A DNA stretch of 41,294 nucleotides, taken from NCBI RefSeq assembly GCF_006345805.1, contig NW_021835377.1, forward strand, positions 1-41,294, read 5' to 3'. Under the pieces are notes generated by a model. It made no database searches. It was not told the DNA's origin and worked only from the letters and a program-made list of their open reading frames with translations. Shown piece by piece: positions 8,568 to 37,346 of the stretch (position 1 is its first letter; the number at the start of each line of letters is the position of its first letter). This stretch comes from Octopus sinensis. Taxonomy: Eukaryota. The translations under genes and the position numbers were made by a program.

Positions 8568-8966
8568 TTAACCCAAGTTATCTCCATGGTGGTCTTTGGC
8601 ATGTTGGTAGAGTATAGAAGACTGTTTTCTGTCGTCAAGTTGTCTTAGATGTTCATTTATCCGTTCCGCAATGCTCTTAGACATCTCCTCTATGTACATC
8701 ATGTTCATGTCCTTACAAGCACCTTCTATGCATCTTATATTGTAAACTACACTTCGAGTTCTACAGTTAATACCAGGGCTAATTCTACATGTCATGCAGT
8801 TATCAATTGTGCATATGGTATTCTTAAACGGACATTCCTTCATAATGTGTGACCTGATGGAGTTCCTTGGCTTTTCAACAATTTTAATGTTGAGTTTGGT
8901 CTCTTTCAGAGCTTTTCTAAATCTAAGGGCTAGTTCTCCATGGGCTGTGGTCTCTACTAATATCAC
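8568..8966 (-). mobile_element. Penelope-like element GIY-YIG endonuclease remnant
   Basis: CTIDNCMTC...CRTRSVVYNIRC...MYIEEMSKSIAERINEH...SILYQHAKDHH: Cys linker plus the VVY/YIG, R..EH and H motifs of Penelope GIY-YIG domains. Confidence 0.85.
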
Positions 8967-9067
8967 TCCTTGAATTTTTACTGGTGAGTGTGTATTTAAT
9001 AATAAGGCACTAAAAGAGAAAGACTCTCCCCAGACACAAACAGAATATCACTGTTTTCGCTAATTAC

Positions 9068-17045: not shown

Positions 17046-17115
<70 letters not shown>

Positions 17116-17145
17116 TATATTTATAACGATATATCAGATATATAT
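17046..17145. repeat. (TA)n microsatellite at the CR1 3' junction
   Basis: Direct reading. Confidence 0.9.
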
Positions 17146-18958
17146 AAACTTAGATAAAACTTAGAATATGTTTCGACAAAGATTGGTCCAGGCTATGTCT
17201 AACTTAATAGCCCACCATTTAATAGGATTATTCGAATCCTGTTTAAGTCAAGTTTTGTTCAAGTAGTGAGTTCTTGTTGGGTGAGTTGTATCCAGTTTTG
17301 TTCAAGTAGTGAGTTCTTGTTGGGTCAGTTGTATCCTATTATGGGTGGCTTATCTGGTATTCTTTGAAGGAATCTATCCAGACTCCGTTTAAAGTTGATG
17401 GGATCCTTTTCCTCTTTGATCTCTTTCGGACAATGTTAATAGGGCATGGCCTGTTGAGGAAAGAAATTATGTTGCAGTGTACATGTATGTTGTCATCTTG
17501 AATTGGGCAGGGGACGTATAGCCCGTGGTCCAAGTTTGGATGAACCTTGAAGCTATGTTTAGGTCGTTTGGGCATAGTTGGCGTATATTTTCCCACATCG
17601 TCAAATGATGTACCGCTCACGGCAACGCTGGAGGGAGTAAAGTTTCAAGGCTTTACGGACGGGGATCCCAATAATCGAGAGCAGCATGCCTTCAATTCGT
17701 TTAGTGAGAGCCCCTGGGGCTGGGACTCAATTCTGGAGATATTTTGTCTTGTGTGGGAGACCACAGTGGGCAGCAGTATTCAAGGTGTGGCCGTACAAAG
17801 GAAGAAAAAGTGGTATGATGACACCTTGTTCTCTGGACCGGAAAGTTCTTAAGATCCAGGAACTCATCCTACGAGCTATATCGACCTTCTTGTTGATGTG
17901 TGCACTCCAACTGAGATCGTCATCAACAATACACCCAGGTCTCTGATATTGTTAGAGGCTGTGAGCGGTTCCCCTGAAGGAAGAGAGTATGGCTGTTTAG
18001 TGAGGAGTTTCTTCCAAAATGCATCAGCTCAAATTTTCCCTCGTTCAGTTGCATTTTGTTTCTGTCTGCCCATTGACTCACAGCATATAGATCAGACTGG
18101 AGTTGAGTTCGGTCTGCTTCTTCATTGACGATTGCTGGAGCTTGGTGTCATCAGCAAATATTTTCACTTTGCAGTAATGTACGACACTGGAAAGGTCGTT
18201 TATGTAGATTATGAAGAGTAGCGGACCCAAGACAGTCCCCTGGGGGACACCGCTGGTGACTTTTGCTGGGCTTGAGTGGACTCCATCAACTACAACATGT
18301 TGTGTTCTATTCGCAGGAAATACTTGATCCAGTGTAGAACTTTTCCACGGATTCCAACATTTGCCAATTTTGAGAGTAGGATATTATGGTCTACGCTGTC
18401 GAACGCTTTACTGAAGTCAAGATATATGACATCAGAGTTCGAACCTGTTCCCAAGGCTTTGAGTACATCTTCAATGTGTTGTAAGAGCTGTGTTAGACAG
18501 TCCCTGCCACAGCGAAAGCCATGCTGATTTGCATTTAGTAGTTTCTGGGTCTCCAGGAAGTCAGCCATCCTTGATCTTAACACTCTTTCAAACACTTTGA
18601 TGATGTGGGAGGTGAGTGAGATTGGGCGATAGTTGAGTGCGAGGGATCCGTTTCCCTGTTTGAAAACCGGGATGATTGACTGGGATAGAAACTGTTTTGG
18701 TATATAACATGCATCTAACCAATTTCTCCAGAGGTTGGTCAGTGGGACTGCAGGTTGGTGTTTACATTCCTTCAGGAGACTAGCGGGGAATCTATCAGGG
18801 CCTACAGCAGAGTAGTATTTGACCTCATTTATTGCTGCTACGATGTCAGTGGGAGTGAAGGTTATGTCTGCAATTTTGTGTTGGGAGTCAACTTCGTTCG
18901 TTTCTCTTGCGTCAATATCAGTGGGAACACTAAAGACAGCAGTATTTTTTCTGCAATA
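17146..18958 (-). mobile_element. 5'-truncated CR1-clade LINE (RT and C-terminus), copy 1
   Basis: ORF 18290-19048 has NYRPISLTSHIIKVFER, NQHGFR..RDCLTQLL and VIYLDFSKAFD, followed by GVPQGTVLGPLLF, FADDTK and VRPHLEYCCPLWSP. Short tandem tail (CTAAGTTT(T)AT). Frameshifted. Confidence 0.92.
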
Positions 18959-19571
18959 TATATATAGAGAGAAACATGTATATACATATAGATATTTATA
19001 TATATGTATATGTGTGTATGTTTCGGTGTCCCCAAAACCGCCTGACAACCAATGCCGATGTTTTTCTCACTGTTAACTTATCCGTTCGGGAAAAGCAGAC
19101 CAACAGAATTAATACTAGACTGACGTAGATAAAGGTCCTAGTGTCGATTTGCTCTAGAAAAGCTGTGCTCCAGCATTGGCACAGCGAAATGACTAAACAA
19201 GGAAAACAGCAAAAGTGTATGCGTTACGTCTGAACATTATATTGTAGAGTTAATTAGCTTCCATAATACATTTTGATAATCGTCGTTACGTATTTAAATG
19301 TAAGGGAGGTAACTTTTGAATATTTTTCTTAGTTATCTCCCTTTCTAGAGTTACACCCCATGCATATTATTAATTATTAAATTATATAATATGCAAGGTA
19401 AGTCACTTGCGAAGGAAGATAACTCCGAAATCTTCCAGAGTTACTTCCGTTACATCTAATTAAATTATGATATTCAAGGGAAGTAACTCTAGAAAGAGAA
19501 ATAGGTACAAAATTTTGCAGAGTTACTTCACTTACATGTAATTACATTACGATTGGTGTTCCGGTTGGGGT

Positions 19572-19650
19572 TGGATTAGGGTTATGGTTGTGGTTAGGGT
19601 TAGGGGGTTAGGGTCAGGGTCGGGGTTAGGTTGGGGTTAGGGTTAGTGTT
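19572..19650 (+). repeat. Degenerate (TTAGGG)n telomere-like tract
   Basis: TTAGGG, TCAGGG, TTGGGG, TTATGG and TTAGTG variants in tandem. Confidence 0.85.
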
Positions 19651-22600
19651 AGCCTCGTTCACACATCATGCGTCCATACAAACACGCCTCGTTCACCGCC
19701 ATGCGTTCATACAAACAAGGCTCGTTCACCCGTCATGCGTCCATACAAACAACCTGGTTCATACACCATGCGTCCATACATACACGCCTCGTTCACACAT
19801 CATGCGTCCACACAAACAAGCCTCGTTCACACATCATGCGTCCATACTCGCCTCGTTCACACATCATGCGTCCACACAAACAAGCCTCGTTCACACATCA
19901 TTCGTCCATACAAACAGGCCTCGTTCATACATCATGCGTCCATACATACACGCCTCGTTCATACATCATGCGTCCATACACGCCTCGTTCAAACATCATG
20001 CGTCCACACAAACAAGCCTCGTTCACACATCATTCGTCCATACAAACAGGCCTCGTTCATACATCATGCGTCCATACATACACGCCTCGTTCATACATCA
20101 TGCGTCCATACACGACTCGTTCAAACATCATGCGTCCACACAAAGAAGCCTCGTTCACACATCATGCGTCCATTCAAACAGGTCTCGTTCACCCGTCATG
20201 CGTCCATACAAACAAGCCTCGTTCACACATCATTCGTCCATACAAACAAGCCTCGTTCACACATCATTCGTCCATACAAACAAGCCTCGTTCACACATCA
20301 TGCGTCCATACATACACGCCTCGTTCACACATCATGCGTCCATACAAACAGGCCTCGTTCACACATCATGCGTCACACAACCAAGCCTCGTTCAAACATC
20401 ATGCGTCCATAACAACAAGCCTCGTTCACCCGTCATGCGTCCATACAAACAAGCTCGTTCACACATCATGCGTCCATACACACATGCCTCGTTCACACAT
20501 CATGCGTCCATACACACAAGCCTCGTTCACACATCATGCGTCCATACACGCCTCGTTCACACATCATGCGTCCACACAAAGAAGCCTCGTTCACACATCA
20601 TGCGTCCATTCAAACAAGCATCGTTCACACATCATGCGTTCATACAAACAAGTCTCGTTCACCCGTCATGCGTCCATACAAACAAGCCTCGTTCACACAT
20701 CATTCGTCCATACAAACAAGCCTCGTTCACACATCATTCGTCCATACAAACAAGCCTCGTTCACACATCATGCGTCCATACATACACGCCTCGTTCACAC
20801 ACATCATGCGTCCATACAAACAGGCCTCGTTCACCACATATGCGTCCACACAACCAGCCTCGTTCACACATCATGCGTCCATAAACAAGCCTCGTTCACC
20901 CGTCATGCGTCCAAACAAACAAGCCTCGTTCACACATCATGCGTCCATAAACACAGCTTCGTTCACAATATGCGTCATACACACAAGCCTCGTTCACACA
21001 TCATGCGTCCATACACGCCTCGTTCACACATCATGCGTCCCACAAAGAAGCCTCGTTCACACATCATGCGTCCATTCAACAGGTCTCGTTCACCCGTCAT
21101 GCGTCCATACAAACAAGCCTCGTTCACACATCATTCGTCCATACAAACAAGCCTCGTTCACACATCATTCGTCCATACAACAAGCCTCGTTCACACATCA
21201 TGCGTCCATACATACACGCCTCGTTCACACATCATGCGTCCATACAAACAGGCCTCGTTCACACATCATGCGTCCACACAACCAAGCCTCGTTCAAACAT
21301 CATGCGTCCATACAAACAAGCCTCGTTCACCCGTCATGCGTCCATACAAACAAGCCTCGTTCACACATCATGCGTCATACACACATGCCCGTTCACACAT
21401 CATGCGTCCATACACACAAGCCTCGTTCACACATCATGCGTCCATACACGCCTCGTTCACACATCATGCGTCCAACACAAAGAAGCCTCGTTCACACATC
21501 ATGCGTCCATTCAAACAAGCATCGTTCACACATCATGCGTTCATACAAACAAGTCTCGTTCACCCGTCATGCGTCCATACAAACAAGCCTCGTTCACACA
21601 TCATTCGTCCATACAAACAAGCCTCGTTCACACATCATTCGTCCATACAAACAAGCCTCGTTCACACATCATGCGTCCATACATACACGCCTCGTTCACA
21701 CATCATGCGTCCATACAAACAGGCCTCGTTCACACATCATGCGTCCACACAACCAAGCCTCGTTCACACATCATGCGTCCATACAAACAAGCCTCGTTCA
21801 CCCGTCATGCGTCCAAACAAACAAGCCTCGTTCACACATCATGCGTCCATACACACAAGCTTCGTTCACACATCATGCGTCCATACACACAAGCCTCGTT
21901 CACACACATCATGCGTCCATACACGCCTCGTTCACACATCATGCGTCCACACAAAGAAGCCTCGTTCACACATCATGCGTCCATTCAAACAATCATCGTT
22001 CACACATCATGCGTTCATACAAACAAGTCTCGTTCACCCGTCATGCGTCCATACAAACAAGCCTCGTTCACACATCATGCGTCCATACAAACAGGCCTCG
22101 TTCACACATGCGTTCATACGAACAAGCCTCGTTCACACATCATGCGTCCATACAAACAAGCCTCGTTCACACATCATGCGTCCATACAAACAGACCTCGT
22201 TCACACATCATGCGTTCATACAAACAGGCCTCGTTCACACATCATGCGTCCATACAAACAGGCCTCGTTCACCCGTCATGCGTCCATGCAAACCAGCCTC
22301 GTTCACACATCATGCGTCCATACAAACAGGCCTCGTTCACACATCATGCGTCCATACAAACAGGCCTCGTTCACACATGCGTTCATACGAACAAGCCTCG
22401 TTCACACATCATGCGTTCATACGAACAAGCCTCGTTCACACATCATGCGTCCATACAAACAGGCCTCGTTCACACATCATGCGTTCATACAAACAAGCCT
22501 CGTTCACACATCATGCGTCCATACAAACAGGCCTCGTTCACACATCTTGCGTCCATACACACAAGCCCCGTTCACACATCATGCGTCCATACAAACAGGC

Positions 22601-23268
22601 CTCGTTCACACATCATGCCTCCATACAAACCAGCCTCGTTCACACATCATGCGTCCATACAAACAAGCCTCGTTCACACATCATGCGTCCATACAAACAA
22701 GCCTCGTTCACCCGTCATGCGTCCATACAAACAAGCCTCGTTCACCCGTCATGCGTCCATACAAACAATGCTCGTTCACCCGTCATGCGTCCATACAAAC
22801 AGGCCTCGTTCACACATTATGCGTCCATACAAACAAGCCTCGTTCACACATCATGCGTCCATACAAACAATGCTCGTTCACCCGTCATGCGTCCATACAA
22901 ACAGGCCTCGTTCACACATCATGCGTCCATACAAACAAGCCTCGTTCACCCGTCATGCGTCCATACAAACAATGCTCGTTCACCCGTCATGCGTCCATAC
23001 AAACAAGCCTCGTTCACACATCATGCGTCCATACAAACAAGCCTCGTTCACACATCATGCGTCCATACAAACAGGCCTCGTTCACACATCATGCGTCCAT
23101 ACAAACCAGCCTCGTTCACACATCATGCGTCCATACAAACAAGCCTCGTTCACACATCATGCGTCCATACACACAAGCCTCGTTCACACATGCGTCCATA
23201 CACACAAGCCTCGTTCACACATGCGTTCATACATACAATCCTCGTTCACACACCATGCGTCCATACAT
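19651..23268 (+). repeat. 34-bp tandem satellite, ~107 monomers, consensus GCCTCGTTCACACATCATGCGTCCATACAAACAA, with higher-order repeats
   Basis: Monomer read directly; 30- and 31-bp variants are present; marker CAAAGAAG recurs at 20141, 20577, 21043, 21478 and 21952. Confidence 0.97.
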
Positions 23269-23600: not shown

Positions 23601-24370
23601 TCCTTCCACTAAATCCCATCACAAGGATTAGCTAGGCCCTGGGCTACAATAGTAGACAATTGCAGAAGATGACAGGCAGTGGGAATGAACCCGAAACCAT
23701 GTGGTTCGTAAGCAAACTACTTACAACATAACCATTCCTACGTCGATATTCATATATACGACGGGCTTCTTTCAGTTTCCCTCTACAAACTCCACTCAGA
23801 ATACATTGGTCGGCCCTAGGCTATAGTCGAATACACTTGCCGAAGATGCAACGCTGTTGGTTTGAACTCAGCACATTGCGGTTCGTGAGCAATCATTCTC
23901 ACAGAAATGCGCGCACAAACAGACACATAATGTCACGGTTTAAAGGTCAACATGTTTAAAACATAAATAGCTACGAGTTTGCGTATATGCATGTCTCTAT
24001 GTGCCTGGGTGCGGACGTGTGTTTCCAGAAAGTCGCAGTTTTAAGGTCAACATATTTAAAACATAAATAGGTACGAGATTGCGTCTTTGCATGTATCTAT
24101 ATTCGTGGGTGCGGACGTGTGAGTGTTTGTGCGTGTGTGAGCACAGTCCACCTATACCCAAGCTGGTTGCATCGTCTCATAAGAAACAGCCGTGAAAGTT
24201 CCGGATCACATTATATTAATTCTGTTGGTCTTCTTTTCCCGAACGAATAAGTTAATGGAGTGTAAAAAACACCGGCATTGGTTGTCCAGCGGTTTTGGGG
24301 ACACCGAACATACACACATATACATATATATAAATATCTATATGTATATACATGTTTCTCTCTCTATATA

Positions 24371-26140
24371 TATTGCAGAAACATACTGCTGCTGTCTTTA
24401 GTGACTCCCAACACAAAATTGCAGACATAACCTTCACTCCCACTGGCATCGTAGCACAGCAATAAATGAGGTCAAATACTACTCTGCCGTAGGCCCTGAT
24501 AGATTCCCAGTTAGTCTCCGGAAGGAATGTAAACACCAACTTGCTGTCCCACTGACCAACCTATGGAGGAATTCATTAGATGCAGGTTATATACCAAAAC
24601 AGTTTCTATCCCAGTCAATCATCCCGGTTTTCAAACAGGGAAACGGATCCCTCGCACTCAACTATCGCCCAATCTCACTCACCTCCCACATCATCAAAGT
24701 GTTTGAAAGTGTTAAGATCAAGGATGGCTGACTTCCTGGAGACCCAGAAACTACTAAATGCAAATCAGCATGGCTTTCGCTGTGGCAGGGACTGTCTAAC
24801 ACAGCTCTTATACCACATTGAAGATGTACTCAAAGCCTTGGGAACAGGTTCGAACTCTGATGTCATATATCTTGACTTCAGTAAAGCGTTCGATATCCTA
24901 CTCTCAAAATTGGCAAATGTTGGAGTCCGTGGAAAAATTCTACAGTGGATCAAGTATTTCCTGGCGAATAGAACACATGTTGTAGTTGATGGAGTCCACT
25001 CAAGCCCAGCAAAAGTCACCAGCGGTGTCCCCCAGGGGACTGTCTTGGGTCCGCTACTCTTCATAATCAACATAAACGACCTTTCCAGTGTCGTACATTA
25101 CTGCAAAGTGAAAATATTTGCTGATGACACCAACTCCAGCAAATCGTCAATGAAGAAGCAGACCGAACTCAACTCCAGTCTGATCTATATGCTGTGAGTC
25201 AATGGGCAGACAGAAATAAAATGCAACTGAACGAGGGAAATTTGAGCTGATGCATTTGGGAAGAAACTCCTCACTAAAACAGCCATACTCTCTTCCTTCA
25301 GGGGAACCGCTCACAGCCTCTAACAATATCAGAGACCTGCGTGTAATTGTTGATGACGATCTCAGTTGGAGTGCACACATCAACAAGAAGGTCGATATAG
25401 CTCGTAGGATGAGTTCCTGGATCTTAAGAACTTTCCGGTCCAGAGAACAAGGTGTCATCATATCACTTTTTTCCTCCTTTGTACGGCCACACCTTGAATA
25501 CTGCTGCCCACTGTGGTCTCCTCACACAAGACAAAACATCTCCAGAATTGAGTCCCCAGAGGGCACTCACTAAACGCATTGAAGGCATGGCTGCTCTCGA
25601 TTATTGGGATCGCCTTAAAGCCTTGAAACTTTACTTTACTCCCTCCAGCGTCGCCGTGAGCGGTACATCATTTGTACGATGTGGAAAATATACCGTCAAC
25701 TTTGCCCAAACGCCCTAAACATTAGCTTCAAGGTTCATCCAAGACTTGGACCACGGCTATACGTCCCCTGCCCCCAATTCAAGATCACAACATACATGTA
25801 CACTGCAGCACAATTTCTTTTCCTCAACAGGCCCTGCCCTATTTAACATTGTCCCGAGAGAGATCAAAGAGGAAAAGGATCCCATCAACTTTAAACAGAG
25901 TCTGGATAGATTCCTTCAAAAATACCAGATAAGCACCCATAATTGGATATAACTCACCCAACAAGAACTCACTACTTGAACAAACTGGATACAACTCACC
26001 CAAGAACTCACTACTTGAACAAACTTGACTTAAACAAAACTTGACTTAAACAGGATTCGAATAATCCTATCAGGTGGTGCTATTAAGTTAGACATGGCCT
26101 GGACCAATCTTTGGTCGAAACATATCTAAGTTTATCTAAG
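24371..26140 (+). mobile_element. 5'-truncated CR1-clade LINE, copy 2 (inverted duplicate of 17146-18958)
   Basis: ORFs 24580-25197 and 25250-25573 carry the same RT motifs. It has the same 5' truncation point (ATATTGCAGAAA), the same upstream flank and a CTAAGTTTATCTAAG tail. Confidence 0.92.
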
Positions 26141-26299
26141 TATATATAATAATATATATATAATATATTATATATATATACATACATACATATACAACAT
26201 GAGAAAATGGAGAATACATCTAAATCATTAATCAATTATCAGATAATACTTTATTAAACCCTGTCTCAATTTGTATATATATACATATATATTATTATA

Positions 26300-26334
<35 letters not shown>

Positions 26335-26340
26335 ATATAT

Positions 26341-29042
26341 AATTTCAACAATTGAGGGCAAAATTAATTAATTATTAATCAATTTCACCAAGTGTTCAGT
26401 ATGCAAAGGGACCATTCAAGGCGAATTCAAATTATTACATTATATAAAAGGGCTTAGTAAAATAAATTACTTTGCCGCATACTGAACTCATTAGAAATAG
26501 CAGCTAAAAAACTTTTTTAAAACTATTTCTAATACTTAAAGAAAATCTCTCTCATATATAGTGTTTGCTTAATTCAACTCACAAAAGTTTGGGGGTAAGG
26601 ACATCGAAAAATCAAATGCTAAGGTTATTCGAGAACGTACGTTTCAAGATTAGTCAAAACAACATTTCTATCATCGGCTCAGAAATTCCTTGGTTTGGAT
26701 TTGGAAACACTGAAAATAAGAACATACCCTTTCGAAGATCTGCTTCCAACTAACAGTGCCAACAAATTCAAATAAGCAAGCGAAGAATCTCTGTTCTCCC
26801 CTTTCCACCAGCGTGGGTTAAAATCATCAAACACTATGCTTATTTCGATTTCGGTAAAATCCGAAGCATTAATCAGAGGGAGATTAATTATAATTTCAAT
26901 CAACAATTGAGGGCAAAATTAATTAATTATTAATCATTTCACCAAGTGTTCAGTATGCAAAGGGACCATTCAAGGCGAATTCAAATTATTACATTATATA
27001 AAAGGGCTTAGTAAAATAAATTACTTTGCCGCATACTGAACTCATTAGAAATAGCAGCTAAAAAACTTTTTTAAAACTATTTCTAATACTTAAAGAAAAT
27101 CTCTCTCATATATAGTGTTTGCTTAATTCAACTCACAAAAGTTTGGGGGTAAGGACATCGAAAAATCAAATGCTAAGGTTATTCGAGAACGTACGTTTCA
27201 AGATTAGTCAAAACAACATTTCTATCATCGGCTCAGAAATTCCTTGGTTTGATTTGGAAACACTGAAAATAAGAACATACCCTTTCGAAGATCTGCTCCC
27301 AACTAACAGTGCCAACAAATTCAAATAAGCAAGCGAAGAATCTCTGTTCTCCCCTTTCCACCAGCGTGGGTTAAAATCATCAAACACTATGCTTATTTCG
27401 GTTATTTCGGTAAAATCCGAAGCATTAATCAGAGGGAGATTAATTATAATTTCAACAATTGAGGGCAAAATTAATTAATTATTAATCAATTTCACCAAGT
27501 GTTTAGTATGCAAAGGGACCATTCAAGGCGAATTCAAATTATTACATTATATAAAAGGGCTTAGTAAAATAAATTACTTTGCCGCATACTGAACTCATTA
27601 GAAATAGCAGCTAAAAAACTTTTTTAAAACTATTTCTAATACTTAAAGAAAATCTCTCTCATATATAGTGTTTGCTTAATTCAACTCACAAAAGTTTGGG
27701 GGTAAGGACATCGAAAAATCAAATGCTAAGGTTATTCGAGAACGTACGTTTCAAGATTAGTCAAAACAACATTTCTATCATCGGCTCAGAAATTCCTTGG
27801 TTTGGATTTGGAAACACTGAAAATAAGAGCATACCCTTTCGAAGATCTGCTCCCAACTAACAGTGCCAACAAATTCAAATAAGCAAGCGAAGAATCTCTG
27901 TTCTCCCCTTTCCACCAGCGTGGGTTAAAATCATCAAACACTATGCTTATTTCGGTAAAATCCGAAGCATTAATCAGAGGGAGATTATTATATAATTTCA
28001 ACAATTGAGGGCAAAATTAATTAATTATTAATCAATTTCACCAAGTGTTCAGTATGCAAAGGGACCATTCAAGGCGAATTCAAATTATTACATTATATAA
28101 AAGGGCTTAGTAAAATAAATTACTTTGCCGCATACTGAACTCATTAGAAATAGCAGCTAAAAAACTTTTTTAAAACTATTTCTAATACTTAAAGAAAATC
28201 TCTCTCATATATAGTGTTTGCTTAATTCAACTCACAAAAGTTTGGGGGTAAGGACATCGAAAAATCAAATGCTAAGGTTATTCGAGAACGTACGTTTCAA
28301 GATTAGTCAAAACAACATTTCTATCATCGGCTCAGAAATTCCTTGGTTTGGATTTGGAAACACTGAAAATAAGAACATACCCTTTCGAAGATCTGCTCCC
28401 AACTAACAGTGCCAACAAATTCAAATAAGCAAGCGAAGAATCTCTGTTCTCCCCTTTCCACCAGCGTGGGTTAAAATCATCAAACACTATGCTTATTTCG
28501 GTAAAATCCGAAGCATTAATCAGAGGGAGATTAATTATAATTTCAACAATTGAGGGCAAAATTAATTAATTATTAATCAATTTCACCAAGTGTTAGTATG
28601 CAAGGGACCATTCAAGGCGAATTCAAATTATTACATTATATAAAAGGGCTTAGTAAAATAAATTACTTTGCCGCATACTGAACTCATTAGAAATAGCAGC
28701 TAAAAAACTTTTTTAAAACTATTTCTAATACTTAAAGAAAATCTCTCTCATATATAGTGTTTGCTTAATTCAACTCACAAAAGTTTGGGGGTAAGGACAT
28801 CGAAAAATCAAATGCTAAGGTTATTCGAGAACGTACGTTTCAAGATTAGTCAAAACAACATTTCTATCATCGGCTCAGAAATTCCTTGGTTTGGATTTGG
28901 AAACACTGAAAATAAGAGCATACCCTTTCGAAGATCTGCTCCCAACTAACAGTGCCAACAAATTCAAATAAGCAAGCGAAGAATCTCTGTTCTCCCCTTT
29001 CCACCAGCGTGGGTTAAAATCATCAAACACTATGCTTATTTC
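26341..29042 (-). repeat. Left arm of the palindromic array: ~4.9 tandem copies of a ~545-554-bp non-coding unit (ribozyme strand is minus)
   Basis: The same short ORF recurs at 26565, 27119, 27672, 28218 and 28761; the arm begins directly after (TA)n. Confidence 0.97.
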
Positions 29043-31168
29043 ACTTGGTGAAATTGATTAATAATTAATTAATTTTGCCCTCAATTGTTGAAATTATAAT
29101 TAATCTCCCTCTGATTAATGCTTCGGATTTTACCGAAATAAGCATAGTGTGTTGATGATTTTAACCCCGCTGGTGGAAAGGGGAGAACAGAGATTCTTCG
29201 CTTGCTTATTTGAATTTGTTGGCACTGTTAGTTGGGAGCAGATCTTCGAAAGGGGTATGTTCTTATTTTCAGTGTTTCCAAATCCAAACCAAGGAATTTC
29301 TGAGCCGATGATAGAAATGTTGTTTTGACTAATCTTGAAACGTACGTTCTCGAATAACCTTAGCATTTGATTTTTCGATGTCCTTACCCCCAAACTTTTG
29401 TGAGTTGAATTAAGCAAACACTATATATGAGAGAGATTTTCTTTAAGTATTAGAAATAGTTTTAAAAAAGTTTTTTAGCTGCTATTTCTAATGAGTTCAG
29501 TATGCGGCAAAGTAATTTATTTTACTAAGCCCTTTTATATAATGTAATAATTTGAATTCGCCTTGAATGGTCCCTTTGCATACTGAACACTTGGTGAAAT
29601 TGATTAATAATTAATTAATTTTGCCCTCAATTGTTGAAATTATAATTAATCTCCCTCTGATTAATGCTTCGGATTTTACCGAAATAAGCATAGTGTTTGA
29701 TGATTTTAACCCACGCTGGTGGAAAGGGGAGAACAGAGATTCTTCGCTTGCTTATTTGAATTTGTTGGCACTGTTAGTTGGGAGCAGATCTTCGAAAGGG
29801 TATGTTCTTATTTTCAGTGTTTCCAAATCCAAACCAAGGAATTTCTGAGCCGATGATAGAAATGTTGTTTTGACTAATCTTGAAACGTACGTTCTCGAAT
29901 AACCTTAGCATTTGATTTTTCGATGTCCTTACCCCCAAACTTTTGTGAGTTGAATTAAGCAAACACTATATATGAGAGAGATTTTCTTTAAGTATTAGAA
30001 ATAGTTTTAAAAAAGTTTTTTAGCTGCTATTTCTAATGAGTTCAGTATGCGGCAAAGTAATTTATTTTACTAAGCCCTTTTATATAATGTAATAATTTGA
30101 ATTCGCCTTGAATGGTCCCTTTGCATACTGAACACTTGGTGAAATTGATTAATAATTAATTAATTTTGCCCTCAATTGTTGAAATTATAATTAATCTCCC
30201 TCTGATTAATGCTTCCGGATTTTACCGAAATAAGCATAGTGTTTGATGATTTTAACCCACGCTGGTGGAAAGGGGAGAACAGAGATTCTTCGCTTGCTTA
30301 TTTGAATTTGTTGGCACTGTTAGTTGGGAGCAGATCTTCGAAAGGGGTATGTTCTTATTTTCAGTGTTTCCAAATCCAAACCAAGGAATTTCTGAGCCGA
30401 TGATAGAAATGTTGTTTTGACTAATCTTGAAACGTACGTTCTCGAATAACCTTAGCATTTGATTTTTCGATGTCCTTACCCCCAAACTTTTGTGAGTTGA
30501 ATTAAGCAAACACTATATATGAGAGAGATTTTCTTTAAGTATTAGAAATAGTTTTAAAAAAGTTTTTTAGCTGCTATTTCTAATGAGTTCAGTATGCGGC
30601 AAAGTAATTTATTTTACTAAGCCCTTTTATATATGTAATAATTTGAATTCGCCTTGAATGGTCCCTTTGCATACTGAACACTTGGTGAAATTGATTAATA
30701 ATTAATTAATTTTGCCCTCAATGTTGAAATTATAATTAATCTCCCTCTGATTAATGCTTCGGATTTTACCGAAATAAGCATAGTGTTTGATGATTTTAAC
30801 CCACGCTGGTGGAAAGGGGAGAACAGAGATTCTTCGCTTGCTTATTTGAATTTGTTGGCACTGTTAGTTGGGAGCAGATCTTCGAAAGGGTATGTTCTTA
30901 TTTTCAGTGTTTCCAAATCCAAACCAAGGAATTGCTGAGCCGATGATAGAAATGTTGTTTTGACTAATCTTGAAACGTACGTTCTCGAATAACCTTAGCA
31001 TTTGATTTTTCGATGTCCTTACCCCCAAACTTTTGTGAGTTGAATTAAGCAAACACTATATGAGAGAGATTTTCTTTAAGTATTAGAATAGTTTTAAAAA
31101 AGTTTTTTAGCTGCTATTTCTAATGAGTTCAGTATGCGGCAAAGTAATTTATTTTACTAAGCCCTTTT

Positions 31169-31172
<4 letters not shown>
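29043..31172 (+). repeat. Right arm of the palindromic array: ~3.9 tandem copies of the same unit, inverted (ribozyme strand is plus)
   Basis: Reverse-complement copies with ~545-bp period; the arm ends in (TA)n. Confidence 0.97.
29298..29354 (+). ncRNA. Variant minimal type I hammerhead ribozyme. Representative of 9 copies: + at 29298, 29843, 30390, 30933; - at 26628-26684, 27182-27238, 27735-27791, 28281-28337, 28824-28880
   Basis: Stem I UUC(U)GAG/CUCGAA; core CCGAUGA (U4C); stem II UAGA...UCUU (U-U closing); GAAA; palindromic stem III CGUACG; cleavage triplet GUU. Confidence 0.6.

Positions 31173-31200
<28 letters not shown>

Positions 31201-32331: not shown

Positions 32332-32412
<81 letters not shown>
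32332..32412. repeat. Long pure (TA)n microsatellite
   Basis: Direct reading. Confidence 0.95.
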
Positions 32413-32418
<6 letters not shown>

Positions 32419-32517
32419 TCAAGATGAGAAAATGGAGAAATACATCTAAATCAAATATCAATTATCAGATAATACTTTATTAAACCCTATATCAATTTGT
32501 ATATATATATACATATA

Positions 32518-32567
<50 letters not shown>

Positions 32568-32583
32568 TATATATATATATATA

Positions 32584-32762
32584 GGGGGGCAAAGGAAAAT
32601 GATTGCGTCTCTCATAGCCTCTCCTCTCCAGGTGTAATGATCGCTGCAGAACTTCTACCTGGCTGCGCCTTGTGGAAAGTTCTTGCTTATGGCCTCTCCT
32701 GCACTACTGTGTCCACAGCAGCACTTCACGCGGTACCCCCTGTTCTTACTGAGCCTGCTGTG
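32584..32762 (+). ncRNA. HDV-like self-cleaving ribozyme fold at the RTE 5' end (slightly degenerate)
   Basis: P1 GGGGGG (32584-89)/CCCCCU (32736-41) with a G1-U wobble; P2 CACAGCAG (32714-21)/CUGCUGUG (32755-62); L3 UUCACGC (32725-31); J4/2 CUGA (32749-52). P3 is imperfect and P4 is essentially absent. Confidence 0.6.
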
Positions 32763-33323
32763 TGGCGCGACCGGGTGCTTGGCGGTATAACCGGGTGGGC
32801 AGACTGGGCTCGTTAGCCTTGGTTGACAGCCAGTCTAGGAGAAGGAAAACTCTGACTCCAAACCCTCGCTCCGCTGCCTTGCGGATGCTCTTGGGAGAGG
32901 GAAAGGCTATGGGAGTAAACCCAGACAGAAAATCCGGAGTGGAGCCCTGAAGGCGGTAGGGTGTCGAATCTCGACCCTTTTCCGGCAACTCCTGCAGCCA
33001 ACCAGACTCCAAACGTACTGCACTGCATTCCTTTGGATTATGTCTGGGGGCCCGAGAGGGAGATTCTGGTGTCTGGGCAGCCCAGTGTCTTCGTTCCTAC
33101 CGCCCAGGCTTGCGCCATGGAGAAACTACTCCATCGATGGAACAAGCTGAGATGGCAGTTACGAGTTTTAAGCCAGGGTGAATTGGCGTAATCCCGGGCG
33201 CTACGGGTCTCTAACGGTGGGAGGGATCATTGAAGTCCCACTGGTCAGCTACCGCCCGCCTTAAGCTGGGCACCCCCCGGCCAATAATGGTGCTAAGCCG
33301 CCACAGACTGCCCGCTTCAATGG

Positions 33324-36300
33324 GTGCTTGGAGCTAGGACAAAATCTGAAAAGCAGACTGAAAACCCTGCACCAGCAAACAAAGGAAAAACAAATACCCA
33401 GTCTCCAGTCTTGCGACTGGCCACCTGGAATGTCAGGACCATGTGCCCTGGCATCATTGACGATCTACGACAGATGAACGACAGTAGGAAGACAGCAGTC
33501 ATCAACACCGAATTGAAAAGGCTGAACATCGACATAGCGGCGCTGCAAGAGACCAGGCTCGCCGCAGACGGCATGCTACGGGAGAAGGACTACACCTTCT
33601 ACTGGCAGGGGAGACCCGTCGAGGAGGCCCGCCAGCATGGCGTGGGGTTTGCCGTGAGGAACAGCTTGCTCCCCATGGCGATCCCTCCTTCAAATGGCTC
33701 AGAGCGCATCCTCACTCTTGGCCTTGCAACATCAACGGGGAAGGTAAACATAATTAGTGCTTATGCCCCAACACTCCACTCTCCTCAGAAAATAAAAGGC
33801 CGGGTCTATGAGGAGCTCGCGCCACCATCAGCCAGATACCAGGGTCGGAGCCCATCTTCCTTCTGGGCGACTTCAACGCAAGGGTGGGATGATTCGATCA
33901 TGGGGCATGGCCAGACTGCCTTGGACGCTTTGGCGTGGGGAAGATGAATGAGAATGGCCAGAGACTGTTGGAGCTTTGCTCTTACCGGAAACTCTGCGTT
34001 ACCAACACATTCTTCACGACTAAGCCACAACACCGGGTCTCATGGAGGCACCCAAGGTCCGGACACTGGCACCAACTGGACATGGTCATCACCCGGCGAG
34101 CCCACCTCGGCAGTGTGCTTCTCACACGCAGCTACCATGGTGCTGACTGTGATACAGACCACTCTCTTGTGTGCAGTAGGGTCCGATTGGCCCCAAAGAA
34201 AATCCGCCGTCCCGTAGGGAAAAGCCGCCCACGCATCAACACCGCCAGGACAACCAACCCCGACCTCCGCTCGGAATTCACCAACCGCATGGAGGAGGCC
34301 CTTAAAGATCACGCAGCCACGTCCATCGAGGAGAGATGGCAGCTTATTCGCGACACCACTTGCAGAATAGTCATGTCATCCCTAGGAAAGAGGGAGCGGA
34401 GAAATCAAGACTGGTTTGAGGCTCACCTGCCTGAGATGGAGCCTGTCATTGCTGCCAAGAGGGAAGCACTGGTCAACTATAAGCGCGACCCATCAGAAAA
34501 GAACCTGGCTACTCTAAGAACAGCCAGAAGTGACGCCCAGAGGACGGCCAGACGTTGCGCCAACATCTACTGGCAGAACCTATGCCAGAACATCCAGTGC
34601 TGTGCTGACAGTGGTAACGTGAAAGGGATGTACGAGGGGATGAAGAAGCATTCAGGCCCACTGTCAGCAAGGTTGTTTTACTGAAGTCCAGGGATGGCGA
34701 GGTCATCAAGGACCAAGCGAAGCAGATAGAGAGGTGGGTCGAGCATTACCAGAACCTCTACTCCACTGAGAATGTGGTCACCAGGTCTGCCCTCGCCGGC
34801 ATTCCTGCTCTGCCTGTCATGGAGGAGCTTGACCTGCCTCCAACAAAGGAAGAACTGAGCAAAGCAATTGACTCACTCGCTCGGGGCAAGGCACCAGGGC
34901 AAGACGGCATCCCCGCAGAAGTCATTCAGTGCGGGAAGCCAGCCCTTCTGGGCCATCTCCACGAGCTGCTCTGTCAGTGCTGGGAGGAGGGCTCTGTCCC
35001 TAAGGATATGCGTGACGCAAACATCATCACACTGTATAAAAACAAAGGGGACAGAAGCGACTGTAATAATTACAAGGGCATATCCCTGCTCAGCACTGTC
35101 GGTAAGGCATTTGCCAGGGTGGTCCTGAAGAGGTTGCAAATGCTTGCAGAGCGTGTGTACCCCGAGTCTCAGTCTGGCTTTAGGGCAGAGAGGTCTACAA
35201 TCGACATGATCTTCTCACTCAGGCAGCTTCAAGAAAAGAGTCGAGAACAGAGCAGCCCCTATACGTGGCCTTCATCGACCTGGCTAAGGCGTTCGACTCA
35301 GTCAGCAGGGAGGGGCTGTTTGCGCTCCTGGGTAGGATATGTTGCCCTCCCAGACTGCTGAAACTCATCACCTCCTTTCACGATACGGTATGCAGGGAAC
35401 AGTGCAGTTTGACGGATTGCCCTCGGAGTCGTTCGCCATCCAGAGTGGAGTGAAACAGGGTTGCGTTCTGGCGCCGACGCTCTTCGGAATTTTCTTCTCC
35501 CTTGTCCTGTCCTATGCCTTCAGAACGTCCGACGACGGAGTGTTCCTCCACACCAGGGCTGATGGTGGGTTGTTCAATCTTGCGCGCCTCAGAGCTAAGA
35601 CCAAAGTCCGTCAGGTGCTGATCAGAGAGATCCTCTTTGCTGACGATGCCGCCCTAACATCACACAACCAGCCGGGTCTCCAGAGGCTGTTCAGCTCCCT
35701 GGCGGATGCCTGCCAAGAGTTCGGCCTTACCATCGGCCTGAAAAAGACAGAGATCATGGGCCAGGACGTCGGAGGGGTCCCCAGCATCAGTGTCGGCGAC
35801 CACAGCTTGCAGGTGGTGAACGAGTTCACTTACCTGGGATCGACGGTCTCCAGCAGCCTGTCCCTCGAGCCGGAGCTGAACAGACGGATTGGGAGGGCTG
35901 CTGCTGCCATGGCTAAGCTCTCCAGGAGAGTGTGGGAAAACAACATGCTCACAATAACCACCAAGATCGCGGTGTACCGAGCCTGCGTGCTGAGCACCCT
36001 ACTCTACGGCAGCGAGAGCTGGACAACATACACCCGGCAGGAATGCCGCCACATGCGGTGTCTTCGACGGATCCTTGGCATCTCCTGGAAGGACCCAGTA
36101 CCAAACGGAGTCATCCTGGAACAGACTAATATGCCAAGCATGCATGCCCTCCTCGTGCGGAGACGACTGCGCTGGCTCGGACACGTCTGCCGCATGCAGG
36201 ACGGTCGCATGCCTAAAGACATCCTGTACAGCGAACTCACCACGGGATCCCGACCCAAGGGACGTCCACAGCTACGATACAGGGATGTGTGCAAGCGCGA

Positions 36301-36556
36301 CCTGAGGACTGCCAACATCTGTGTGGACACGTGGGAGGTAACAGCTGCTGGCCGCTCTGCCTGGCGTCGGACAGTGAGGAAAGGCGTTTCCATGGCTGAG
36401 GAAAGGAGAGCACAGCCGTGGTCGGACAGGAGGAGGACAACTGCAGCAACACCCCACACGTACCCATCGATGTTCGTGTGCAGCAACTGTACCAGGGACT
36501 GCCACTCTAGAATTGGACTGTTCAGTCACAGCAGACGCAGCACATCATCAAAGTAG
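33324..36556 (+). pseudogene. RTE polyprotein (APE endonuclease, reverse transcriptase, C-terminal C2H2), frameshifted
   Basis: ORFs 33324-33947 (LATWNVRTM, DIAALQETR, GVGFAV), 33935-34684 (HWHQLD, DTDHSLV), 34774-35361 (KNKGDRSDCNNYKGISLL, QSGFR) and 35339-36556 (GVKQGCVLAPTLF, LFADDA, CSNCTRDCHSRIGLFSH). Confidence 0.93.
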
Positions 36557-36780
36557 GCCCCACACTTGGCGCAACCCATTGTCTATCAAGACAGACGGGG
36601 AGAAGAGAAGAGATATATATACATACATATACAACATGAGAAAATGGAGAAATACATCTAAATCAAATATCAATTATCAGATAATACTTTATTACACCCT
36701 ATATCAATTTGTATATATATACATATATATATTTATATATATATTATATATATAATATAATATATATATATATATATATA

Positions 36781-37346
36781 ATCGCCTTAATCCGTATGTC
36801 GTCTTTGTTGTTGTCCCCTCTGTGTTTAGCCTCTTGTGGGTAGTAAAGAAATAGGTATTTCATCTGCCGCTACGCTCTGAGTTCAAATTCCGCCGAGGTC
36901 GACTTTGCCTGCTATTTCTAGCATATGGACAGCCTTCTTGAAGGCCTGATCGATTTGCTTGACTAAATGCGGTGCTCCAGCATGGCCACAGTCAAATGAC
37001 TGAAACAAGTAAAATAAAAGAACATATATATATATGTTTTGATTTTCCTTATTTCAGTCATTTGACTGTGGCCATGCTGGAGCACCGCATTTAGTCGAGC
37101 AAATCAATCCCAAGACATTATTTTTAACCCTAGCGGTTCTTGTCAAGCGATGTTGGAGGGGGGAGGGGGTAAACAGACACACACACACACTCACACACAC
37201 ATATATGTATACATTTATATACGATGGGCTTCTTTCAGTTTCCATCAACCAAATCTATTCATACATACACACACACAAACACACACACATATGTGTGTTT
37301 TCATTTCTGTGTCTGCGTGCGCGCGTGTTTCTAGTTCATTACTTGT

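Follow-up and report, generated by a model that had tools for sequence, protein, structure and literature searches.

Head-to-head arrays of a hammerhead-bearing repeat in Octopus sinensis: a candidate Penelope-dependent retrozyme family

A two-armed array of 545-nt units in a (TA)n tract

The window analysed here is the whole 41,294-nt contig NW_021835377.1 of the Octopus sinensis assembly GCF_006345805.1. It contains a 4.8-kb block of 8.9 units of 545 nt, arranged head-to-head within a (TA)n tract whose left and right parts lie at 26274-26341 and 31168-31197. The left arm (26342-29042, minus strand; 2,701 bp, 4.96 units) comprises four full units plus unit positions 41-545, and the right arm (29043-31178, plus strand; 2,137 bp, 3.9 units) runs from positions 493-545 through three full units to positions 1-451, its last bases being common to the arm and the TA run. 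All units are 98-100% identical to the reference unit (29641-30185, plus strand, 545 nt). The two 5'-truncated arms meet at 29042/29043 with an overlap of 1 nt, and the junction is not a mirror, the left arm stopping at unit position 41 and the right arm starting at 493. These data bear out the nine near-identical units, the head-to-head join and the entry of both outer 3' ends into (TA)n described in an earlier note on this DNA.

The outer ends of the two arms differ, a point absent from the earlier note: the left arm ends at unit position 545, the right arm at about 446-451. The left outer end carries a tail of 95-99 nt (26342-26440, minus strand; unit positions about 447-545) that the right end lacks, and which would lie between two reverse-transcription start sites. 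The unit has a GC content of 33%, is strongly structured on the plus strand (z -6.0) and holds no long ORF; the longest stop-free frame of a unit dimer is 86 codons and the longest ATG frame 68, in agreement with the earlier statement that no protein is recognisable.

A paralogous site at 36613-36790 (plus strand) had been taken for an empty site. It does have the same two flanks joined by (TA)n, but these flanks are only 92-93% identical to those of the filled site and lack 23 nt that stand just to its right. Given this low identity and the missing nucleotides, sequence comparison points to a diverged duplicate that does not carry the element, not to the pre-insertion allele.

Dispersed copies and the pairing of their outer ends

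The window element is one of over a thousand copies, a family and not an oddity. At least 4,620 related hammerhead motifs occur in the genome (3,741 and 879 matches, with 0 and 4 in the controls), and exact matches of unit ends running into TA number at least 953 for the long end (position 545) and at least 979 for the short end (446-451), with none in the controls. Units 98-100% identical occur on many contigs, and the copies are dispersed and recently mobile. We examined 58 loci, taken from the best or first-listed matches among more than a thousand; their arrays reach 15.9 units per locus and their outer ends sit in (TA)n. Any target-site duplication would mostly be hidden in this tract: an informative direct repeat of at least 18 nt was seen at 3 of 57 loci (42, 30 and 18 nt), against 3 of 456 control pairings (maximum 19). 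Five seemingly solitary hammerheads proved to be further retrozyme copies at 78-80% identity.

Head-to-head arrays make up 45 of the 58 loci and 13 are one-armed, while no tail-to-tail locus was found among them. The outer ends fall at either of two fixed positions in the unit, separated by 95-99 nt, and the two arms of a locus almost always use one of each: among 43 classifiable loci, 41 have mixed ends, two are long+long and none is short+short (binomial p 2e-10 for the mixed excess). Two of the loci represent a single insertion present on two contigs, which leaves 40 of 42 distinct loci mixed. Outside the sample, pattern lists of 91 long and 81 short ends contained 10 adjacent head-to-head mixed pairs, one long+long and no short+short pair. 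Subfamilies with 82-88% identity follow the same rule, as do most loci of a family with 65-70%; unit region 350-545 is 92-98% conserved among subfamilies that are about 87% alike overall. The constancy of the ends suggests a single RNA molecule as the template for both arrays, within one insertion.

The inner ends are variable. The 5' stops are scattered over the unit, the stops of paired arms lie a median of 129 nt apart and coincide in only 2 of 45 junctions, and 28 of the 45 junctions show an overlap of 1-11 nt. Arm lengths are uncorrelated, and either arm may be far longer (73 versus 1,399 bp; 4,676 versus 917 bp). Sequence variants are shared along a locus: of 37 locus-variant pairs, 34 are fixed through all covering units and 35 are present in both arms, and eight fixed variants are private to their locus within the sample. 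Variants common to both arms would also be explained if target-primed reverse transcription made only the first arm, which then gave rise to the second through fold-back or self-priming, with resolution at an AT-rich site; self-priming has been proposed for head-to-head PLE (Penelope-like element) repeats (PMC3846280). Fold-back copying, however, predicts matching ends, and the end pairing largely refutes it; the unequal arms and the differing stops speak against it as well, as does, weakly if the variant arose later, a 165C in the left arm of the window that the right arm does not mirror. We therefore regard this route as quite improbable. The dispersed (TA)n insertions, the variable non-mirror junctions and the locus-wide variants in both arms together support what the earlier note had proposed, namely one insertion event in which priming from two sides was followed by repeated copying of a single monomer.

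The window and two other two-armed loci are mosaic (in the window, 165T>C occurs in two of nine units), which copying of a single monomer would account for only if conversion followed or the assembly is in error. Such mosaics indicate some turnover, as expected if the family were an ordinary satellite in which monomers or pLTRs inserted once, grew by unequal crossing-over (a route suggested for arrays in bioRxiv 10.64898/2026.07.22.740005) and were inverted by breakage, and local homogenisation could fix private variants. This account nevertheless leaves unexplained why the outer ends are fixed and pair one of each, why the polarity is exclusively head-to-head, and why young, 98-100% identical loci dispersed as (TA)n insertions share variants between their inverted arms, and we give it very little credence.

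An assembly or long-read fold-back artefact might be suspected from the unplaced status of the 41-kb contig, from the 375 1-nt indels in 229 units and from the window's own junction, which is unbridged among the pieces listed. Against this, there is no mirror at the junction, in the variants or in the flanks, and the flanks continue as in the paralogue. The same form recurs at 44 other loci with different junctions, and 11 such joints are present in contigs assembled from the short reads of run X19, at a depth of 30-48, so that the head-to-head form does not depend on a single read; an artefact is very improbable.

The hammerhead motif and candidate Penelope-type partners

A type I core with three stems was recognised by motif in all nine window units, in line with the one hammerhead-like motif per unit reported earlier. 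In the reference unit it spans 29836-29906 (plus strand), with a CCGAUGA core carrying U4C (29850-29856), GAAA at 29882-29885, a 2-bp stem III with a GUAC loop, and a cut predicted after GUU at 29893. The other motifs lie at 29305, 30397 and 30940 on the plus strand and at 28873, 28330, 27784, 27231 and 26677 on the minus strand. Among 13 variants, 19 pairs are kept in every one and six vary, each on one side only; compensatory two-sided changes numbered zero in this set, for which the shuffle control was uninformative. U4C is a feature of the window subfamily, and related subfamilies carry the canonical CUGAUGA, with U, C or A at position 7. An Rfam hammerhead search gave no match at the gathering score, nor at E up to 10. 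By prediction, the active fold is less stable than the free minimum by 7-13 kcal/mol, U4C is reported to reduce hammerhead activity in vitro (PMC3088659), and a 10-nt palindrome is predicted to permit a dimeric form. The predicted cut site marks neither the junctions nor the outer ends, and only 1 of 82 5' stops falls within 5 nt of it.

The disregard of junctions for the cut site, together with U4C, the unstable predicted active fold and the mosaic arms at three loci, would fit an alternative that keeps two-sided priming and makes the template a long uncleaved multimeric transcript, or two RNAs from one source, the hammerhead being incidental. PLE insertion in vitro did not require hammerhead cleavage (PMC11167929). 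Private variants fixed in all units would still require a monomer-to-multimer step somewhere, though, and one locus (L054) totals 15.9 units against 12.1 for the longest single-orientation arm in the sample. Two independent RNAs alone would not yield the predominance of mixed ends. We consider this alternative unlikely.

Attachment to a Penelope RT/GIY-YIG ORF, which the earlier note had envisaged, was not found: such an ORF is absent from the unit and none is attached at the 58 loci. Searches for PLE-type families, which scored 78-150 of 6,743-38,246 candidates each, revealed no homology to the unit in the flanks of 20, 30 and 2 loci from three sets. Families with intact ORFs of 781-784 aa, with ORFs to about 900 aa and with open frames to 1,120 aa (two 3' flanks compared) were rejected as partners for lack of homology. 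A GIY-YIG-like relic in the window (8571-9047, minus strand), which has no Pfam match, belongs to an old decayed family in which homology to the unit was likewise not found, and a PLE ORF flanked by two arrays (L094/L095) represents an independent insertion that has terminal repeats of its own.

RNA editing, which would appear as A>G on the hammerhead strand, was also considered but is not claimed. T>C places on the strand complementary to the hammerhead number 24 and 17 in runs X1 and X5, which are only guessed to be RNA, versus 7 and 5 in X19 and X21. Of the 12 listed places, only four are both rare in X19/X21 and without a genomic counterpart; the others match subfamily variants, the runs have no matched DNA run, and genomic substitutions show no A>G excess.

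A proposed insertion route and its relation to known elements

We consider it likely that the family is a young non-autonomous, Penelope-dependent non-LTR retrozyme, in which two DNA ends prime on one RNA monomer, probably circular, that is copied repeatedly. The arrays would be transcribed, and the hammerheads, probably as dimers, would free a monomer that is then circularised. A Penelope-type RT-endonuclease would bind the conserved 3' region (unit 350-545) and make a double-strand cut in a (TA)n tract. Both 3' ends of the broken DNA would then serve as primers on the same RNA, one at a loop at position 545 and the other at a loop at 446-451, and copying from each would go round the monomer a variable number of times. 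Short microhomology would finally join the two cDNA ends, leaving 5'-truncated multimer arms head-to-head with a one-sided tail. L1 twin priming offers a parallel, where priming of one RNA by two target ends produces a head-to-head inversion whose junction shows microhomology; here, in contrast, priming uses fixed internal sites, poly(A) is absent, and both arms span many units.

The fit to a PLE-mobilised retrozyme rests on the inverted copy, the one-sided tail and the TA target, which are published PLE hallmarks. In PLE insertions, the 5' end bears a 5'-truncated copy in inverted orientation and only one end has a tail; the targets are AT-rich or (TA)n, 5' truncation goes along with microhomology, and a hammerhead lies upstream of the tail (PMC11167929, PMC8557442, PMC3846280). 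A PLE protein, a predicted dimer, nicks and extends both strands, and the tail is bounded by the two internal sites on the RNA from which synthesis starts (PMC11167929). The octopus element differs from endonuclease-bearing PLEs in having no ORF, arms that are multimers of up to 12 units and no pLTR homology in the families compared. Against our preferred reading also stand a tail of 95-99 nt versus the 30-40 nt described in those sources, the lack of a start-site difference between strands in vitro in PMC11167929, and the missing Rfam match and PLE partner homology, U4C, the active fold above the minimum and the mosaic loci. MRC1-type Chlamys PLEs are likewise non-autonomous and PLE-dependent with multicopy head-to-tail insertions, but their 3' sequence also occurs in known autonomous families, and their clade is said to be without canonical hammerheads (PMC8557442).

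Animal non-LTR retrozymes (PMC7229834; bioRxiv 10.64898/2026.07.22.740005) are alike in their low-GC non-coding tandem units, each with one type I hammerhead, dispersed as dimers to multimers. The unit of 545 nt compares with 150-450 nt as typical and up to 972 nt in the preprint, and axolotl HHR_Amex2 resembles the window motif in its 2-bp helix III with a tetraloop and a U.U at the base of helix II. For the octopus family, RNA, circles and cleavage are predicted features. Head-to-head arrays with two fixed end sites are mentioned in neither source: 'inverted' does not occur in PMC7229834, and its only occurrence in the preprint is in the title of a reference; 'tail' is absent from the preprint. 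We found no description of head-to-head retrozyme multimers or of a counted one-of-each rule in the largely open-access literature consulted.

The origin of inverted and tandem PLE copies with a one-sided tail is stated to be open (PMC11167929, PMC8557442). That of retrozyme arrays is unsettled between PMC7229834, whose discussion proposes rolling-circle copying of retrozyme circles, and the 2026 preprint, with its later satellite growth. In a family that is small, young and high in copy number, the outcome of insertion is recorded more than a thousand times, and a tail 'often at one end' becomes a rule, in which the arms almost always use different start sites on one template haplotype. Tentatively, and with somewhat less than even confidence, we propose that a dimeric Penelope-type enzyme places its RT sites on two loops of one circle, separated by 95-99 nt, and that each site takes one end of a double-strand break as its primer; the two polymerases would follow one another round the circle, so that arrays are born whole by double rolling-circle reverse transcription. 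If this is true, the one-sided tail and the inverted and tandem copies would all come from a single step in all endonuclease-bearing PLEs. The one-of-each rule is testable in the existing in vitro PLE system, given a circular template. For the octopus genome, the insertions form long near-perfect inverted repeats, which are likely to be a source of dsRNA and of local instability.

The window block and its family

The block at 26342-31178 is built from two opposed arms of a non-coding unit, for which the 545-nt copy at 29641-30185 (plus strand) was chosen as the numbering standard. Compared with this reference, the left arm (26342-29042, minus strand) comprises four full units and unit positions 41-545, and the right arm (29043-31178, plus strand) comprises positions 493-545, three full units, and then positions 1-451. 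The earlier note had described a palindromic block of near-identical units of about 545 bp without a recognisable protein, and this description holds: the units are 98-100% identical, and no reading frame is longer than 86 codons. As also noted there, (TA)n adjoins both outer 3' ends, and one hammerhead-like motif, CCGAUGA ... GAAAC-GUAC-GUU/C, is present in each unit (9/9). The paralogue at 36613-36790, read in that note as an empty site, does have the same two flanks joined by (TA)n, but not as a pre-insertion allele. With flanks only 92-93% identical and 23 nt of the right flank missing, it is a diverged copy of the site in which the element never landed.

Short tandem duplications of 6 and 9 nt are seen at unit positions 38-40 in the two outermost left-arm units (26860-26900 and 27395-27415). 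They sit in the same hairpin where the left arm halts (position 41), which is possibly a pause site of the reverse transcriptase (RT). Elsewhere in the window, a broken RTE-like LINE with endonuclease and RT frames (32580-36610) lies between two direct copies of a 175-bp sequence (32401-32575 and 36613-36780, 94% identity), the same segment as the left flank of the retrozyme-like block; the copies stem either from a target duplication of unusual length or from the local tandem duplication. Two inverted copies of a LINE-like RT fragment, 2 kb long and 90% identical (17088-19114 and 24214-26194), enclose a 3.6-kb satellite of 34-bp repeats (19651-23267, 108 copies); degenerate GGTTAG telomere-like repeats, about 15 in number (19563-19652), directly precede this satellite.

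The window spans an entire contig of a 2.72-Gb animal genome, in which the unit belongs to a large young family. A DNA search yielded 912 candidates, 40 of which were scored, giving 211 matches at 95-100% identity. Searches with exact patterns of the hammerhead found 3,741 matches (control 0), and further hammerhead subfamilies added 879 (control 4). From 150 listed DNA-search matches, 38 stretches were taken (37 with the element and one neighbouring stretch without it), and 20 more loci, picked mostly for divergent motifs, came from the first 100 places of the 3,741-match pattern. Including the window, the sample comprises 58 loci.

Variants and junctions of the two arms

Variants were surveyed in 229 units from the first 38 loci and counted where two or more units of a locus with two arms shared them. 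Of the resulting 37 locus-variant pairs, 34 extend to all units that cover the position, and both arms carry 35 of them. Eight fixed variants in six loci are private within this sample, including three in 9/9 units of locus L034, and mosaic variants occur in the window (2/9 units), L054 (5/15) and L047 (3/6). Inner stops are found throughout the unit, and a uniform distribution is not rejected (p 0.07); 1 of 82 lies within 5 nt of the predicted hammerhead cut. The lengths of the two arms show no correlation (rho 0.07), and the longer arm may be either one. Of 45 junctions, 28 have a 1-11 nt overlap, 12 have 1-11 extra bases, two are flush and three lie in an internal hairpin; the stops of the two arms coincide in 2/45 loci. 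These observations exclude an origin by read fold-back and argue against copying of one arm from the other; the shared variants fit a single template for each insertion.

In short-read contigs assembled from sequencing run X19 (probably DNA, possibly from the source sample), both orientations are linked by 11 of 15 listed joints, which lie at other positions and have a depth of 30-48; the window's own junction is unbridged among the pieces listed. At L047:4607-4775 the junction is complex, with the strand switching two further times at unit position 486.

Pairing of long and short ends

Of the 58 loci, 45 are head-to-head, 13 one-armed and none tail-to-tail. The outer 3' ends cluster at two sites, each followed by (TA)n: a long end at unit position 545, with a 95-99-nt tail, and a short end at 446-463, without it. 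In the 43 head-to-head loci counted (two were excluded, one end lying elsewhere), 41 pairs are mixed, two are long+long and none is short+short (binomial against one half, p 2e-10). With L052 and L053 taken as a single insertion on two contigs, 40/42 distinct loci are mixed. Genome-wide, end-pattern searches give at least 979 short ends and at least 953 long ends, the long-end pattern covering one subtype and missing the commonest spelling. Among the 91 long and 81 short ends listed on C1, mixed neighbours in head-to-head arrangement occur 10 times at loci outside the fetched sample. The same ends form one long+long pair, which the sample already includes, one pair on the same strand and a further distant pairing; none of the pairs is short+short.

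The end pattern is retained in subfamilies at 82-88% identity and at 78-80% (L181). In an older family sharing only the 361-540 region, at 65-70%, it is found in most two-armed loci, a few having two long ends. This older family (L119-L148, found through L118:6077-6233; 2,016 candidates) is also non-coding and has units of about 520 nt; it carries a separate hammerhead-like motif, and its insertions are likewise head-to-head. Region 350-545 is the best-conserved part of the unit (92-98% where whole units are at about 87%), and both end sites fall in unpaired stretches of the predicted fold. L038 and L059 have direct repeats (42 and 30 nt) on their two sides, which suggests that long staggered cuts can occur and are usually masked by (TA)n.

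RNA fold, candidate mobilisers and proposed insertion mechanism

The predicted fold of the hammerhead strand is much more stable than that of shuffled sequences (z -6.0), with a circular fold energy of -138.0 versus -112.5 kcal/mol for the complement; two-sided changes occur in 4/154 consensus pairs (12 units compared). All 19 proposed hammerhead pairs are kept in 13 variants (six vary one-sided, none two-sided), while slid controls are 24-56% paired and the shuffle control is uninformative. Related subfamilies have the canonical CUGANGA (N = U, C or A), and one has GUA at the cut site. Three observations speak against a working hammerhead: an Rfam search gave no hammerhead match; the window's subfamily carries U4C, which is reported to lower hammerhead activity in vitro yet permit viroid infectivity (PMC3088659); and the active fold lies 7-13 kcal/mol above the free minimum. 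Stem III is surrounded by a 10-nt palindrome (-11.6 kcal/mol as a self-duplex), which would allow a dimeric hammerhead of the kind described in axolotl retrozymes; their HHR_Amex2 shares the 2-bp helix III and the U.U pair (PMC7229834). Self-cleavage by the hammerhead is thus a prediction.

The genome contains young intact ORFs of Penelope-like element (PLE) type of 781-784 aa (RVT_1 match on the query) and further families of up to about 900 aa and 1,120 aa; some young families terminate in (TA)n. No unit-like sequence was found in the PLE-type flanks examined, which does not imply that a partner is absent because less than 3% of candidates were scored in each search. In several copies of the young families at L099-L114, the 781-784 aa RT frame is overlapped at its start by a frame of 437-479 aa, which suggests that these PLEs have two ORFs or a frameshift. 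The window itself has a relic of a PLE-type endonuclease end (8571-9047, minus strand), from a mostly decayed family of 6,743 candidates; a younger relative has open frames to 1,120 aa, a (TA)n end and a hammerhead-like motif in its 3' repeat.

The element class is already known, and every hallmark is published for PLEs. Main texts of the open-access literature yielded no head-to-head retrozyme multimers, counted one-long, one-short end rule, tail near 100 nt, or variant-based evidence for both arms from one monomer. Published PLE insertions have a 5'-truncated copy in inverted orientation and a 30-40 bp tail often at a single end, and some clades target (TA)n (PMC8557442; PMC3846280). In vitro, a purified PLE protein nicked the two target strands and extended each of them, initiating at two internal RNA sites bounding the tail; the protein is predicted to form a dimer, and start sites showed no difference between the strands (PMC11167929). 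Retrozyme circles were proposed as tandem-cDNA templates, with PLEs as the likely mobiliser (PMC7229834), and a preprint ties retrozymes to PLE terminal repeats (pLTRs), ascribing arrays to later local amplification (10.64898/2026.07.22.740005).

From the observed insertion products we infer an RNA, a circle, a dimer and an enzyme. Copying of a monomeric RNA circle would give many identical units in both arms; the main rival template is a long multimeric transcript. A cut in (TA)n would let both DNA ends prime on one RNA, one per start site, and the two cDNA ends would join through microhomology. Priming of both ends on the same RNA at separate start sites would force each two-armed insertion to have one long and one short end.
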